In this document: piece by piece, positions 30,001 through 42,000 of the stretch | Layout: each line of letters opens with the position of its first letter | Numbering within the stretch: the stretch's first letter is position 1 | Source: Fibrobacteria bacterium | GTDB taxonomy: Bacteria; Fibrobacterota; Chitinivibrionia; Chitinivibrionales; FEN-1185 | Direction: 5' to 3' | Assembly: GCA_037447435.1 (NCBI GenBank) | Contig: JBBIGR010000005.1 | Location: 1 to 64,000, forward strand | DNA: 64,000 nucleotides | Position numbers: made by a program

Positions 30001-33000
30001 GTTCAGCGTCCGACGAAGCGTATGAGGCCTCGCGGTGACCGGAATCGGTATTTTGAATATTTTTCGGCGAATCAATTACGATATTTTCAACCATTGTTGT
30101 TCCTTTGGTCAATTTTCAATGTTACGATACCCCAACCGACATATAAACCGGAACATCCCTTGATGTTTTAACTAATTGGCAAGCAGTATCTAACATCACA
30201 GGGATTATCGCAATTGTCATGCCATAGTATTGAAAGTATGGATACGTTAAAAAAAATACAGATTTTCTTTTATATGCATGTTCCTGTCAGTTTCTTTTCG
30301 GATGATTATTCATCCGTTTTAATGATTTTTAAACTTTCCCCATAAAATCCCTTCGTTGAATACCCTGTATCATATAGTAACAAAAGTTTACCATTAAGCT
30401 TCTTTTTCTCTGTATTAGGGCTATATACAATAATTTACCTAGGTTCCGGCATATAAAACAAGAAAAGTTTAATTGGCTCATTCTTTGCTTCAATGTTTAC
30501 AGTACTCAAAATTGTTCACAGTGGCATTTTTTCCGTGATATCTCGTATATTTCCAATGACCTTAATTGAGAATAAATAGTATAATCAATTTTTTGCAACG
30601 TTCCATTAAAAAGGAGTTTTGTTTACTCGTATGAAATTTAAGGGAAAACCAGTTACCGCCCGAGCCATTTTATTGGCAGCATGCATAATTATCGCTGGAG
30701 GCATACTACTCCTTTTCGGCACTCTCGAAATCACTTCCCAACCCATTTTTTGCAGTTCGTGTCATTATATGAAACCGTATTACAAGCAATGGAAAGCATC
30801 TTCGCATAATAAAGTGAATTGCCTCGATTGCCACTCAAAACCGGGATTCACTAATTATCTTAAAAGAAAATTCGCCGCATTACATGAAGTTGCGTCCATG
30901 GTTACCGGCAAATACCCTCCTCGCCCGCATGCGGAAGTGGACGATGCATCATGCCTCCGGCAGGGTTGCCATGAAACGAGACTTCTCAAAGGTAAAGTTT
31001 CTTTCAAAGGCATTTCATTCGACCATACGCCCCATTTGACCCAAGAAAGGCGCGGTCGAAAGCTTCGATGCACGACGTGTCATGCGCAAATGGCCATGGG
31101 CCGCCACATTGCGGTAACCGAAGAGGTTTGTTTCCTGTGTCACTTCAAGGACAGAATGCAAACACCGGAAGCTTCGACATCGGCATTTTGCTTGAAATGC
31201 CACAAGGTCCCTGACACGGCAGTAACAATCCGAAATACCAAAGAAACGTTTACGCATACCGATTATGTCAAGGGTAAAGTCCAATGCCAAGATTGTCATA
31301 CAGGAATCATTCGCGGAGACGGAAAAGTTCCAAAAGTCATGTGCTTTCAATGCCATAACAAACCTGAAAACCTTGAAAAATTCGACGATATCCCGTTTAT
31401 CCATGAAAACCATATTACAAAGCATAAAGTTGAATGCTATTTATGCCATACTGAAATTGAACATTCCATTTATCCGAAAGACCATGGCGAGCAAGCTCCT
31501 TCCACGCCTGCCTCCTGTACCCGTTGTCACGGCAATGGCCATCTTGCATCCCAATTGCTATATAAAGGAATTGGGGCTAGAAATGTAGCCGGGGTTACAA
31601 GCAGCATGTATCGCGCTCATGTTTCATGTACCGCTTGTCATAGGATAACACCCCAAGATACCGTATCGTTTGCAACCGGTACGCATTTTCCAAAAGCCGA
31701 CCAAACCGGATGTGCGCTTTGCCACGGCTCGGATGGTGCATCGTATTATCAAGATTGGAACGGTCAATTAAAAACAGCCTTATCGGCTGCCGACGCGGCA
31801 CTTGGTCACGCAAATTCAAATCGTCCGCAAATTGAGAAAGACTCTGCCGCTTCCAAAAAATTTGCAGATGCCGAATACAATATCCGATTTGTAAAAGCAG
31901 GCAAAGGAATACACAACATTGAATATTCTGTTGCAATTCTTGAAAATGCGACAAAAAATCTTCAAGGGTTATCGCAGGGTAAAAAGTAACATTGTTTTTC
32001 CCAAGCAAGTCAATTTATTGCCTTATTTGGGAAAAATTCTCCGAACAGATTAATTTTCAATGGGTGATGCAATGATTTTTAATCCGGATGATTTATTTTT
32101 GATTGCAAAACCCTTTGTTTTCTTTATAATTTTACTTGCATAATGAATGGCATGGGTTTTGCAATATTCATCAACTTGTGATATTTTTAGCATAATATTT
32201 CCATTTTTTGTAATTTTGATCTAAAACCTATAAATTTTCATCTACACTATTCAGGAGGCTCTTGTGAAATTTGGAAGAAGAATTGGCTTGTATGTGTTGG
32301 TATTCAGCTCTCTATTATTGACCACGACTGGATGCCTGCAGGGACCGACCGGTGCGGCTGGAAAAGATGGAAAAAGCGTTACCGACACTATTTATATCAA
32401 AGACACACTGCTGACCAGAGACTCCAGTTTCATTCGCGATTCAATTATGACCATGACCACTTGCTCGCAATGCCATTTCAATAATCAATTGATTGTTTCA
32501 AAGCAATATGAATGGGAAATGACCAAGCATGATACCGGAACGACATGGGTCGGCGAAGGTTCCAACGCAGCATGCATAGCCTGTCATAACGGTAATGCTT
32601 TTATTTTCAAGCTTTCCTCGGCGGATTCGGCCAATGTAATGGCAAATCCGACAAATGCGAATTGCCGCACGTGCCATAAAATTCATACAAAATACGACAC
32701 TACCGATTTCGCACTTGTCGGCGATGAACAACGCGTTGTATCAAAGAATAACAGTAATTTAACATTCCCCGATTACGGCGCAGGAAACCTGTGCGTGAAT
32801 TGTCACCAACTCCGTACGAATTTCCTGGAAGACGTCAAGGCGGGAAAAGGAGTCGAGGGAATCAATCCGAACAATTCGATTACTTCGACTGCCGTTATGG
32901 TTGGAACGGATTCGGTCAAATTTACGGCCACAGCAAGTCGTGCCAGCATGCATTATGGAGCGCAGGCCGAAATCGTTGCCGGTGCCGGCTTATATCTGCC

Positions 33001-39000: not shown

Positions 39001-42000
39001 GTCTAATCATGCGGCGAAATGTTCGGATTGTCATGGATCGCATACCATATTTGCCCTTTCCGACCAACGATCGACACTTTCCAAAGCGAACATTGTCGCG
39101 ACGTGTAAGAAATGCCATCCTGGTTCAAACAAAGGGTTCACCGGGTATTTGCCGCATGCCACGTATCAGGATAAACACAAGTATCCGGTTCTTTTTTATT
39201 CCTTTTGGAGCATGAGCGCATTGCTTTTTGGGACATTCGGCTTTTTCGGGCTTCACACCATTTTATGGATTCCACGGTCCATTCGGGAACGTTTAAAACG
39301 TCGTCCGAACAGTATCGAATTGAATGGAAAATGGGTTAAACGATTCCCCGCATATTACCGGGTTTTGCATGTTTTTGTCATAATTTCATTTTTAGGGTTG
39401 GCATTGACCGGTATGGCATTGAAATTTTCCGATCAGAATTGGGCAATCGCGATTTCCCGATTCCTGGGAGGTATATATGTAAACGGGTTTATTCACCGCC
39501 TTTGTGCGATTATCACCTTCGGTTATTTCAGCGCGCATCTTATTGAACTTTTTGTTCGAATGAAACGGGAAAAACAAAAATTCGTCGACTTTGTTTTTCT
39601 CAAAGACAGCATGATCCCGACCTGGCGCGATGCGAAAGAATTTTGGCAAAGTATTTTGTGGTTTACAGGTTTTGGGCCCCGACCGGCGTACGGCAGGTGG
39701 ACGTATTGGGAAAAATTCGACTATTTCGCCGTATTTTGGGGCGTTATGATTATAGGTTCGACAGGTCTTATGTTATGGTTCCCGGAATTTTTTACCCGGT
39801 TCTTACCCGGATGGTTTATTAACATTGCCACTATCATTCATAGTGACGAAGCGCTTCTTGCCGTCGGCTTTATTTTCACCATACATTTTTTCAATACGCA
39901 TTTCAGACCCGATAAATTTCCAATGGATATGGTGATTTTTACCGGTCGAGTTCCCTTCGAGGTTTTTTCTGAAGAACGGCCTCGAGAACTTGAAGAATTA
40001 AAATCACAAAACCGACTTGATAGCATGTTTATGGAGCCCCCCTCAAAAAAATTAATTCTCATTGCGCGTGTTTTTGGAATATCGGCTTTAGTCACAGGAT
40101 TACTGCTTGCCGGTTTGATTATTTGGACTATGGTGTCGAAACTTTTTTAAATCATGGATAAAACGTCTTGCGATGGAATCGGGTATAAAACATATTGATC
40201 AAATCCGGGCCAAGGTAAAATATTGATACCTATATTCACGTATTCAGTTTGCTCATTATGATAAAAATTGCTGCAAACTGCATACATACATTAATTTCTT
40301 CATTTTTGCAGGAGGATGTGTATGCGTTTATTGACTAGTGTCTTGGTTCTTTTTATGGCCGGCAGTCTTTTTGCCGATTCAAACTATATCGGTGCCGACA
40401 AATGCGCCAAGATGTGCCATAAAAGCAAGGCTAAGGGTGATCAGCTTTCGATATGGAAAGAAAGCAACCATGCCAAAGCTTACAGTGTTTTGGCAACTCC
40501 TGCAGCTCTTGAGACTGCAAAAAAGGTCGGTTTGACAGGCGATCCTCAGAAATCAGACAAATGTCTTAAATGTCACGTGACTGCATTCGGTGTCGATGCG
40601 TCTCGTTTGGATTCGACCTATAGCAAAGAAGAAGGTATTAGTTGTGAAGCATGCCACGGAGCCGGAAGCGGCTATGCAAAACTCAAGATCATGAAAGACA
40701 AGAAAGCTGCGATTGCTGCCGGCCTTGCCATTCCTGATGAAAAAACATGTGTAAAATGTCATAATACCGATTCACCGAATTATAAGAAATTTAATTTTGC
40801 AGAAATGGTAAAGAAGATTGCTCATCCTACGCCGAAGCAAGCTGAAACTAAAGAAGGCGAAGCAAAGTAATTTGGACCTGTTTTAAAAAGTTTTTTATGT
40901 AAGGGCGATTCATGAATCGCCCTTACTGCATCAAAATGGTTGTAAATTTGATTTTGACGAGCCGCGATCATAGAGGGAAAGGCATTATATAAATGATAAA
41001 AAGATTTATTAACTTGCTCGGTTCAGTACAGGTTATCGTACCGCTTCTTATCGTCATAACAGTGGTTTCTCTCGCCGGCGTCATTGTACCTCAAAGTTTA
41101 CCGACAGCCCAATACCTTCAAATCATGCCCGGATGGAGAAGCTCGATTATTCTCCAACTTGGACTTGATCATATTTTTTCCACATGGTGGTTCTACACGC
41201 TCTTGGGAATATTGGCTGTCAATGTCGTGGCTTGTTCATTGACACATCAGGTGAAAAGCCTGAAAAACGCCGGCGCCATGCGGTTTCTCCAAAAACCCGA
41301 CGATGCAAATCGCCTAAAATGCTCTGTATCTTTTGAGGTGGATGGCGCACAGATTAATGCTGTGGAAACCATAACGGGATTTATGAAACGCCGCATGTTT
41401 TTTTGCTCAAATCAAACCAAAGAAAATGTCACTCAAATCGCGGCGAGGTCTCCCCGGCTTAAAGAAATCGGCTCGCTGATGTTCCATTTAAGCATCCTTT
41501 TCTTTTATGTCGGCGGCATTGTGAGTACTATGGGCGGGTTTTCATATGTTAAAGAGCTATGTTCCGGCGACGTGGTTGGAGTCCAAAATTGGCCCTACCG
41601 GATACGATGCGACGGTTTCAAGGTGGAAAGAAACCAGGACGGAGCTGTTTCATCGTACAAATCCAATTTAACAGTACTGTCGGCCGATTCGACCCAACTG
41701 TTGAAAAAAGTCGTTGAAGTCAATCATCCGCTTGCTTTTGCCGGTGTCAATTTTTATCAAAACAGCTACGGAGAACAATCGGGAAGTTTTGAAGTTGCAA
41801 GTCTGCAGGTTTTTGGCCCTCAATTCGATACAAGCGGCTACATGACCGCCGCTTCCTTAAATACGCCGGTGACGCTCCCCGGTAACGGCATAACTTTGAC
41901 CGTTTCCCGATTTATCTCGGATTTCATCATCGACATGCAATCCGGCGAAGCGACATCCCGTTCCGACAGGCCGAATAATCCCGCTGTCAAGGTTACATTG

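Follow-up and report, generated by a model that had tools for sequence, protein, structure and literature searches.

In Geobacter, the conduits ExtABCD, ExtEFG and OmbB-OmaB-OmcB, several of which occur per genome, combine a barrel of ~20 strands, a periplasmic multihaem cytochrome and one or two lipoprotein cytochromes, one pentahaem; this three-part layout has been genetically tied to metal and electrode reduction, and a Hox-like hydrogenase belongs to the extEFG transcription unit (PMC6148476). Shewanella MtrCAB likewise consists of a decahaem cytochrome, an empty barrel and a lipoprotein cytochrome. Geobacter sulfurreducens has a NapC/NirT-type and a b/c-type quinol oxidase in one genome, ImcH and CbcL. 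Desulfovibrio has a periplasmic hydrogenase with type I cytochrome c3, as well as Dhc-Rnf, and its c3 delivers electrons inward to membrane complexes. Known as a phylum for fermenting plant fibre, the Fibrobacterota act as primary cellulose and chitin degraders. According to the accessible part of a phylogenomic survey, the Chitinivibrionia as then known had no respiratory chain (PMC4704652). In peat, the EET1-4 clusters of Acidobacteriota and Verrucomicrobiota are backed by transcript data and proposed to reduce peat organic matter (bioRxiv 10.64898/2026.05.27.727921); the main text of that report makes no mention of Fibrobacter*.

The locus described here lies in a 64,000-nucleotide stretch of a Fibrobacteria genome (the window; Table 1). 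By analogy, it appears to be a conduit that resembles those of Geobacter in its working and is not Mtr. It shares with the former the three parts and the occurrence of several conduits per genome, a likeness judged by layout, but here the region also holds the quinol oxidase, maturation and haem genes; the hydrogenase found in its kin is HysAB-like and Tat-exported, with a c3 partner fused into the conduit cytochrome, rather than Hox-like. Although the parts of MtrCAB recur, the barrel has 22 predicted strands against 26 in MtrB (accessible part of PMC12133095), and the decahaem is a c7-repeat protein without a DmsE/MtrA match. Like EET1-4 in general make-up, the cluster is a sequence-divergent porin-multihaem cluster of an uncultured polysaccharide degrader, read here from the genome sequence. 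ImcH and CbcL, with 7 and 9 c-haems, are matched by architecture, the counterparts here having 11-12 and 19. The Desulfovibrio systems are resembled by two variants among the kin, B (HysAB-like hydrogenase plus c3) and C (c3-like tetrahaem plus Rnf), in which c3 is instead part of, or adjacent to, the outer-membrane conduit.

Table 1. Features of the window, with positions, strand and basis of assignment
Feature	Positions	Strand	Basis
Hmc/Hyb-like membrane module: TM protein, HmcB/HybA-like FeS protein, NrfD fused to hexahaem c3 domain (g00743, 2608-4491)	1073..4491	+	
Acetyl-CoA synthetase, TCA genes (sdhCAB, citrate synthase, sucCD, 2-oxoacid:ferredoxin oxidoreductase), homocitrate synthase	4666..17336	.	
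NqrA-F-like NADH:quinone oxidoreductase	21833..27270	-	Best NCBIfam matches nqrA-F, mostly under equivalog cut-offs
Polyprenyl diphosphate synthase, divergent from cluster	29150..30112	-	
NapC/NirT-type cytochrome, membrane-anchored, 11 CxxCH + 1 CxxxxCH	30631..31989	+	PF03264 E 1e-16, over cut-off; one N-terminal TM helix
Pentahaem (5+1) lipoprotein, collagen-like linker; candidate surface reductase	32264..33445	+	Lipobox TTGC
Terminator-like 12-bp hairpin and T run, 3' of pentahaem gene	33467..33496	+	Consensus match only
Haem-free lipoprotein, no known family	33533..34315	+	Lipobox FWGC
Outer-membrane beta-barrel g00772, 22 strands, without plug; proposed conduit sheath	34515..35735	+	Predicted fold
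Periplasmic decahaem, c7-like repeats; candidate wire through barrel	35732..36460	+	10 CxxCH, without lipobox
Heptahaem lipoprotein, two CxxxxCH; candidate outer-surface cytochrome	36460..37353	+	TIGR01904 E 3e-14, over cut-off; lipobox FTGC
19-haem cytochrome fused to 4-helix FdnI-like cytochrome b domain; CbcL-like quinol oxidase candidate	37355..40150	+	19 CxxCH, 4 C-terminal hydrophobic segments
c554-like tetrahaem (3 CxxCH + CxxxCH), periplasmic shuttle candidate	40316..40870	+	PF13435 E 2e-17
Cytochrome c maturation system II: ResB, CcsB, second CcsA-like protein	40993..44130	+	
Haem synthesis: hemA, cysG-N, hemC, cobA/hemD, hemB, ahbD, hemL	44120..51924	+	
NuoA, B, CD, H, I, J, K, L (M, N beyond window); without NuoEFG	56980..64000	+	

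Gene order and haem content of the cluster

The barrel, decahaem, heptahaem and 19-haem genes form a single run (34515-40150) in which neighbours overlap or abut (gaps of -4, -1 and +1); the NapC/NirT-type and pentahaem lipoprotein genes lie upstream. An earlier note on this DNA had described this cluster (contig C5; 11, 5, 10, 7, 19 and 3 CxxCH per protein) together with another on contig C24 (7, 9, 10 and 5), and its counts proved exact on recount, including the genome total of 15 ORFs with at least three CxxCH, 10 of which belong to the two clusters. Multihaem genes number only 15 of about 3951 in this genome, and residue shuffles gave means of 0.01-0.11 motifs (maximum 3 in 1000). Extra CxxxxCH or CxxxCH motifs lift several likely haem counts (11+1, 5+1, 7+2 and 3+1). 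Scans for promoters and terminators returned no more than chance would give, with 7 terminators found vs 13.7 in shuffles.

The N-terminal TM helix and PF03264 domain place the 11-haem protein in the NapC/NirT type and make it a candidate quinol oxidase with an ImcH/CymA-like role. Its gene starts at 30631 or at a TTG at 30619. In the 19-haem protein, relatives of which occur in 9 of 296 genomes of the phylum, the cytochrome b domain matches PF01292 and TIGR01583 weakly and under cut-off, the likeness to CbcL being one of architecture.

Several statements of the earlier note on the surroundings were borne out: the NrfD-hexahaem fusion, ResB/CcsB maturation, haem synthesis (hemA-L and ahbD) and NrfA (as NrfAH, on contig C12) are all present. 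So is the Nuo without NuoEFG, its subunits A, B, CD, H, I, J and K being located by HMM and L, M and N from the ORF list; none of the four Complex1_51K matches is a Nuo subunit, since two adjoin [FeFe] hydrogenases and two are RnfC. The futalosine pathway was not found in this genome, and the classical men pathway is present (menD over cut-off on contig C40, with menA, B, C, E and F-like neighbours). Besides the NqrA-F-like complex, which the earlier note had passed over, IDH, aconitase, fumarase, bd and haem-copper oxidases and Sdh/Frd are encoded; a motif search found no malate dehydrogenase, and the only molybdopterin match lies on contig C25. Menaquinone synthesis and the respiratory flanking genes argue for a host that respires, and the TCA enzymes, Nqr, Nuo, oxidases and menaquinone together suggest a facultative respirer and no pure fermenter. 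Of the "electron transfer kit in a Fibrobacterota fermenter" that had been announced, the kit genes stand, but the host is probably not a plain fermenter.

The barrel and its neighbouring cytochromes

Once the alignment comprised 113 rows, the AlphaFold model of g00772, which has a signal peptide, reached pLDDT 94 and pTM 0.85 with 22 strands, which largely answers an objection of the earlier note: its low-confidence model was due to a shallow alignment. The fold matches are barrels, e.g. FyuA (Z 19.5, rmsd 4.2, 330 aligned); MtrB (Z 15.7, rmsd 6.4, 334 aligned) is the only porin-cytochrome chain among those listed. At E<0.1 the family profile matches outer-membrane barrels exclusively, and a narrow barrel profile found nothing under E 0.1 among PDB sequences. 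A TonB-dependent receptor was rejected, the entire mature chain being barrel and aligning only to the post-plug part of receptors. An MtrB/PioB-family protein was rejected as well, given the 22 strands and the lack of matches to such models in all 113 members (Pfam/NCBIfam, E 0.01); nor does any of the 113 match, in these databases, a model named for a conduit porin family, OmbB, ExtB or ExtE included. Named relatives are hypothetical proteins of Fibrobacteria and Ignavibacteria. The eight homologs reported earlier hold for a single-sequence word search, but not for the profile, which finds 119 clusters at 50% identity; among 20 of these whose members were looked up, a single taxon name emerged. 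Likewise, the C5 and C24 barrels (g00772 and g02524), paired in the earlier note, are not significantly similar in pairwise BLAST (E 0.012), yet the profile links them: stripped of the 13 rows nearest the C24 barrel, it still retrieves that barrel at 2.8e-25. The C24 cluster appears to be a second, paralogous conduit; in a quick tree its barrel falls on a long branch whose position is uncertain.

The decahaem family profile matches the c7 polymer 3OV0 best (E 1e-25) and MtrA (6R2Q_A) at E 8e-8; membership of the DmsE/MtrA family was rejected, as 35732-36460 has no TIGR03508 match at E 0.01. Co-folding of barrel and decahaem scored 0.60 vs 0.00 for the best control (at least 80% of contacts agreeing between runs, partner pLDDT at least 69). 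Of 157 solved pairs 116 reached the mark, as did 2 of 215 mismatched pairs; those that did so with a score no higher than 0.60 comprised just 18 of the solved pairs and both of the mismatched ones, so the signal is weak, and it may reflect likeness to solved MtrAB.

The profile of the pentahaem family matches PDB 6I5B, which we take to be OcwA, at E 1e-4, whereas the pentahaem sequence alone found no match among PDB sequences and folded singly at pLDDT 29; its relatives adjoin barrels in genomes G006, G291 and G263. The heptahaem has one weak match among PDB sequences. The haem-free lipoprotein matches nothing in Pfam/NCBIfam, but has a paralog at C5:67122-67964 and a counterpart at the same position in G006 (52% identity). 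A lipobox does not tell which face of the outer membrane a protein occupies.

Proposed electron route and its alternatives

Barrel, periplasmic multihaem and lipoprotein cytochrome are all present and travel together across kin, which supports the porin-cytochrome conduit proposed in the earlier note; two inner-membrane quinol-oxidase-like cytochromes and menaquinone synthesis also fit it. We put at about two in three the probability that the cluster encodes a full set of carriers taking electrons from menaquinone to the cell exterior. From the observed genes, motifs, order and conservation and the predicted fold, we infer the assembly, surface exposure, direction and acceptor of this conduit, with export to humics, Fe(III) or a partner cell. 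In this reading, the oxidation of sugar or acetate would supply NADH, ferredoxin and succinate, these would reduce menaquinone via Nqr, the 11-subunit Nuo and Sdh, and the quinol would be oxidised by the NapC-type 11-haem and the 19-haem/cytochrome b proteins, probably at different potentials, as by ImcH and CbcL in Geobacter. Electrons would then reach the decahaem, either directly or via the c554-like tetrahaem. With its C-terminal haems the decahaem may run through the 22-strand barrel, handing the electrons to the CxxxxCH lipoprotein and perhaps also to the pentahaem lipoprotein on the surface, and these would reduce humic matter, Fe(III) or another acceptor outside the cell.

It is unlikely that the barrel is instead a substrate channel or scaffold, with the cytochromes storing charge or, inside or close to the periplasm, reducing soluble acceptors (chelated metals, oxyanions of sulfur or selenium, nitrite via NrfA) and nothing insoluble respired, since barrel and decahaem are inseparable across 21 genomes with three different periplasmic inputs and the cluster holds no catalytic molybdo-enzyme or CxxCK cytochrome. 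Some weight is lent to this reading by the C24 pentahaem, which weakly resembles ExtKL (E 8e-7, under cut-off), ExtI-type conduits being tied to selenite and tellurite reduction (PMC6148476). NrfAH is also encoded, but NrfA has its own NrfH and lies on a separate contig.

The NrfD-c3 module at 1073-4491 is of a type that we take to be quinone-reducing, and this, together with bd and haem-copper oxidases, NrfAH and Sdh/Frd, would suit a real conduit that runs inward, in which the quinone pool takes electrons from reduced humics, Fe(II) or a partner cell and serves to reduce oxygen, nitrite or fumarate; uptake through analogous conduits is proposed for ANME partners (accessible part of PMC10553843). 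Inward flow is nevertheless improbable, as the cluster sits amid donor-side genes (acs, TCA, Nqr, Nuo) and includes architectures of the ImcH and CbcL type, and in Geobacter these act as quinol oxidases (accessible part of PMC12307469).

Bin contamination or a non-functional relic is very improbable and already largely refuted. In its favour, the barrels of four near-complete genomes of the same genus are just 26-27% identical and set among other genes, these genomes gave no match to the 19-haem or NapC/NirT protein, and menD occurs in this genome alone among 23 searched. Against it, the genome is 99.6% complete with 2% contamination, and all ORFs of the window are intact. From Nqr to the 19-haem gene, the order is shared by G006, a member of the same family (44-73% identity). 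An 8-11-haem gene comes after the barrel in all 21 other carriers, which makes contamination unlikely. The doubt voiced in the earlier note is largely answered by the cluster's tetranucleotide distance (72nd percentile of the genome's 10-kb windows) and by a quick tree that groups the barrel, with support 99, within a clade holding the main barrels of same-order kin.

Input of the proposed conduit across the Fibrobacterota

The barrel family occurs in 22 of 296 Fibrobacterota genomes, and a relative of the heptahaem lipoprotein is the third gene in 20 of the 21 other carriers. In five genomes the conduit adjoins Rnf, the c3-like tetrahaem of variant C lying beside an Rnf with DVU2794-type RnfG. 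In nine, a cytochrome c3 is grafted onto the decahaem, seven of these directly behind a Tat [NiFe] hydrogenase; the enzyme of variant B, HysAB-like with Cys instead of Sec, is Tat-exported and accompanied by the c3 domain. In the nine, the swap is confined to the decahaem's N-terminal haem module, while the C-terminal seven haems stay aligned, as expected if the N-terminal end faces the periplasm. No quinol oxidase was found in these kin. Judging from gene content, the periplasmic input of the conduit differs between kin, with quinol oxidases here and Rnf or c3/hydrogenase elsewhere, a difference that would be new. No group-1 periplasmic hydrogenase was found in the present genome, and the hydrogenase reading therefore does not apply to the window itself. 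A description of all hydrogenase-linked kin as strictly quinone-free is weakened by G002 and G003, which carry Nuo with NuoCD, and by G295 (100% complete), which has a 19-haem/cytochrome b relative and no menD or mqnA/D matches. A metagenome scan with the c3-graft region returned one copy identical to an already known locus and one unrelated match.

It is possible, though we would give it less than an even chance, that the Fibrobacterota have one outer-membrane conduit with a swappable periplasmic input, and that in the nine kin the hydrogenase's own c3, grafted onto the decahaem, sends H2 electrons out without a quinone step, H2 from cytoplasmic Ech-type or [FeFe] enzymes being re-oxidised in the periplasm. 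The present genome would then have the quinol-fed form of this conduit. A literature search, largely of papers free of subscription, found no report of a porin-cytochrome conduit in Fibrobacterota or of a c3-grafted hydrogenase conduit; the supplements of bioRxiv 10.64898/2026.05.27.727921 and PMC12545173 (37 phyla), outside its scope, may list Fibrobacterota.

Mtr-type models miss this unnamed family of 22-strand barrels, so that its profile can serve to mark conduits overlooked in other phyla; Ignavibacteria are among the named matches. The c3 graft would be a natural case of a rewired conduit input, in a small three-to-five-gene unit suited to a heterologous host. If the reading of the c3-graft kin is true, they are polysaccharide degraders with hydrogen-cycling respiration on extracellular acceptors, and the cycling would mean scalar proton pumping, less H2 inhibition of fermentation and H2 diverted from methanogens. 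If the genes of the window work as proposed, some Fibrobacterota would couple polymer breakdown directly to extracellular acceptors, which would bear on the unexplained CO2 over CH4 in wet anoxic soils.

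Barrel and cytochromes of the C5 cluster

A six-frame scan of the 5.05-Mb genome (99.6% complete, 2% contamination) reproduced exactly the CxxCH counts of the earlier note: 11, 5, 10, 7, 19 and 3 in the cluster on the window's contig, C5, and 7, 9, 10 and 5 in that on contig C24. Fifteen ORFs genome-wide have three or more motifs; shuffled proteins contained a mean of 0.01–0.11. The genes for the barrel (g00772), decahaem, heptahaem and 19-haem proteins overlap or abut.

The eight homologs credited to the barrel were indeed returned by a single-sequence search, but a profile search gave 119 clusters. 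Matches of the profile in PDB and Pfam were outer-membrane barrels, MtrB/PioB being absent from them. The barrel model had been considered weak; AlphaFold run on a 113-row alignment gave 22 strands with a pLDDT of 94 and no plug. Its best fold matches were 22-strand receptor barrels minus their plug (Z 19.5, rmsd 4.2, 330 aligned), and comparison with MtrB gave Z 15.7, rmsd 6.4 and 334 aligned, a likeness of fold that shows no function. The C24 barrel (g02524), suspected to be unrelated, proved to be a distant paralog (E 2.8e-25 with a profile lacking its 13 nearest rows). For this protein the called start falls downstream of the signal peptide, and the extended frame suggests a non-standard start codon.

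Co-folding of barrel and decahaem scored 0.60 vs 0.00 for the best control, with contacts agreeing to at least 80% between runs and a partner pLDDT of at least 69. Of 157 solved pairs, 116 attain the mark set for such scores, as do 2 of 215 mismatched pairs; since, among these, 18 solved pairs and both mismatches lay at or below 0.60, the result argues weakly for a complex. The score may also stem from likeness to MtrAB.

Features of the window, its genome (G000) and related genomes (other G numbers; L numbers are fetched loci). Numbered rows follow the order of the C5 cluster.
Feature	Location	Position	Remark
1, NapC/NirT-type 11-haem	window	30631–31989	one TM helix
2, pentahaem lipoprotein	window	32264–33445	
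3, haem-free lipoprotein	window	33533–34315	no known family; paralog at C5:67122–67964; relatives near cytochrome clusters of G006, G242, G291
4, barrel	window	34515–35735 (+)	
5, decahaem	window	35732–36460	
6, lipoprotein heptahaem	window	36460–37353	CxxxxCH-type
7, 19-haem/cytochrome b	window	37355–40150	four C-terminal TM segments
8, c554-like tetrahaem	window		
9, ResB/CcsB	window		
10, haem synthesis	window		
NqrA-F-like operon	window	21833–27270	complete; divergent from cytochrome cluster
Homocitrate synthase	window	11439–12572	NifV-like, at cut-off; within TCA gene run
Two-component systems	window	17901–21787, 27306–29128, 51952–56345	flank region; one sigma-54-dependent with phosphonate-binding-type sensor partner; similar regulators beside clusters of G237, G238, G242, G263
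Classical men operon	G000, C40	26920–33603	
Nine-haem lipoprotein	L001 (C24)	1429–2685	Big_2 Ig-like domain at its end; possible surface adhesin-cytochrome
C24 barrel, upstream frame	L001 (C24)	4753–4891	46 codons 5' of first GTG/ATG; signal-peptide-like stretch inside
Two FeS/NrfD modules with tetrahaem cytochromes	L018 (G006)	6602–12005	between 11-haem and pentahaem genes; 274-base gap in G000
Split barrel gene	L060 (G291)	6646–7880	in two ORFs that overlap, through a frameshift or an assembly error; relatives of the C5 cluster and of the C24 cluster adjoin on this contig
Very large multihaems next to second barrels, with 27 and 22 motifs; 19-haem/cytochrome b genes, two in tandem	L065 (G071); L058, L073 (G242)	5722–9312; 7286–10513, 6532–11402	
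Hydrogenase-fed operons	L014 (G002); L015 (G005)	7389–13362; 6046–12263	
Hydrogenase-fed operons	L016 (G004), L017 (G003), L021 (G029), L056 (G035), L070 (G024)		
Rnf-linked loci	L059 (G069), L062 (G071), L063 (G068), L064 (G072), L069 (G070)		

Respiratory setting and direction of electron flow

Outside the cytochrome cluster the window is one respiratory region, which also codes for an Hmc/Hyb-like NrfD module, acetyl-CoA synthetase, Sdh, citrate synthase, SucCD, 2-oxoacid:ferredoxin oxidoreductase, Nqr, polyprenyl synthase and a Nuo without EFG. Because the Nqr operon is present, NADH could enter the quinone pool despite the missing NuoEFG. Elsewhere the genome carries menD with men neighbours (menD was found in this genome only among 23 searched, four others having the futalosine route), IDH, aconitase, fumarases, cytochrome bd, a haem-copper oxidase, NrfAH, three secretins, two Rnf, and [FeFe], Mvh-type and group-4 hydrogenases. 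Fermentation, proposed earlier, is possible, but an organism so equipped for respiration is not a plain fermenter.

We infer the assembly, topology, direction and acceptor of the conduit as follows. Donor oxidation would reduce menaquinone, from which two quinol oxidases would feed the decahaem inside the barrel; surface lipoprotein cytochromes would then pass the electrons to an extracellular acceptor. To outward respiration of this kind we assign a probability of roughly two in three. That the cytochromes serve soluble or periplasmic acceptors instead, in a genome that does encode NrfAH, is unlikely; inward electron flow through these same proteins is about as unlikely, the cluster lying among donor-side genes.

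In its working, the proposed outward conduit would resemble the Geobacter Ext/Omc conduits as described in extracts of PMC6148476. An Mtr-type conduit was rejected: the barrel has 22 strands, not the 26 of Mtr barrels, and none of the 113 family members matches an MtrB/PioB model. Comparable divergent clusters, found transcribed, are described for peat Acidobacteriota and Verrucomicrobiota in part of bioRxiv 10.64898/2026.05.27.727921; conduits in new phyla are therefore no surprise as such. Our literature search found no published report of a porin-cytochrome conduit in Fibrobacterota, and extracts of PMC4704652, PMC7399161, PMC12545173, PMC12307469, PMC10553843, PMC12133095, PMC11495043, PMC10734482, PMC13186404 and bioRxiv 10.64898/2026.07.27.741047 do not assign extracellular electron transfer (EET) to the phylum. 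The paper listed earlier as pairing Fibrobacterota with multiheme and EET is probably PMC11495043, whose extracts name the phylum for carbohydrate enzymes only.

Conservation and proposed exchangeable inputs

The barrel profile matched 22 of 296 phylum genomes, in 11 of 70 genera, and none of the 151 genomes of the largest family; named records with relatives of the barrel were Chitinivibrionales or Fibrobacterota, in keeping with the phylum given for this genome. Among the listed matches, which come from kin and so are not independent, the next gene encodes an 8–11-haem cytochrome in all 21 other carriers, and the third resembles the window's lipoprotein heptahaem in 20, the remaining one having a 4-haem gene. 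G006 has the same arrangement of genes over the stretch running from Nqr through the 19-haem gene (44–73% identity). A quick tree grouped the window's barrel with the main barrels of same-order kin, in a clade of support 99, and in composition the cluster does not stand out from its genome; contamination, suspected earlier, or a relic is very improbable. With its genes, motifs, order, fold and conservation as observed here, the C5 cluster is, as first read, a real and native porin-cytochrome conduit, probably a working one, on an unnamed barrel family.

Its kin differ in predicted input. Conduits read as quinol-fed have NapC-like and 19-haem/cytochrome b genes within the cluster (G000, G006, G237, G238) or, for the latter gene, on the same contig (G242). 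In Rnf-linked conduits (G068–G072), Rnf genes follow the trio of barrel, multihaem and lipoprotein cytochrome, and at least three of these genomes have a gene for a c3-like tetrahaem between trio and Rnf; RnfA, B and a DVU2794-type RnfG were confirmed in G071. These barrels are longer (about 480–510 aa), and c554-like cytochrome and Ccs genes come after Rnf. The Rnf-linked and the hydrogenase-fed barrels each form one clade in the quick tree.

In conduits read as hydrogenase-fed, the genes of a HysAB-like [NiFe] hydrogenase, for its protease, its twin-arginine small subunit and its large subunit, lie directly 5' of the barrel (G002–G005, G024, G029, G035). A c3-grafted 11-haem and a lipoprotein cytochrome come after the barrel, and the operon has no cytochrome b subunit. 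In G001 the hydrogenase and conduit halves each end at a contig edge, and in G080 (77% complete) the [NiFe] enzyme was not found. Geobacter extEFG likewise lies within a hydrogenase unit, of Hox type (extracts of PMC6148476). The close hydrogenase clade (at least 55% identity) occurs in 9 of 296 genomes, eight of them with the barrel. In the ninth, G294, a free tetrahaem c3 is part of the hydrogenase operon, and an NrfD is encoded elsewhere. This c3 matched the conduit cytochrome's N-terminus in nine of nine hydrogenase-fed members (37–48% identity, E at most 9e-17) and in none of 17 other conduit cytochromes, including both G000 copies (E 3e-4 or worse).

The hydrogenase-fed conduits may be quinone-free. 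Across their nine genomes neither menD, MqnA/D, NapC/NirT, NrfD nor hydrogenase cytochrome b gave a match above cut-off, and the 19-haem protein gave none; among five tested, none had cytochrome bd, all had cytochrome c maturation and four had group-4 large subunits ([FeFe]: two of nine). However, two genomes possess a Nuo, four of the nine are below 90% complete, and G295, which lacks both quinone markers, yet carries a b/c cytochrome. As judged from sequence comparison, the system's most surprising feature is the proposed exchangeable input, above all the apparent c3 graft; it is seen in the relatives.
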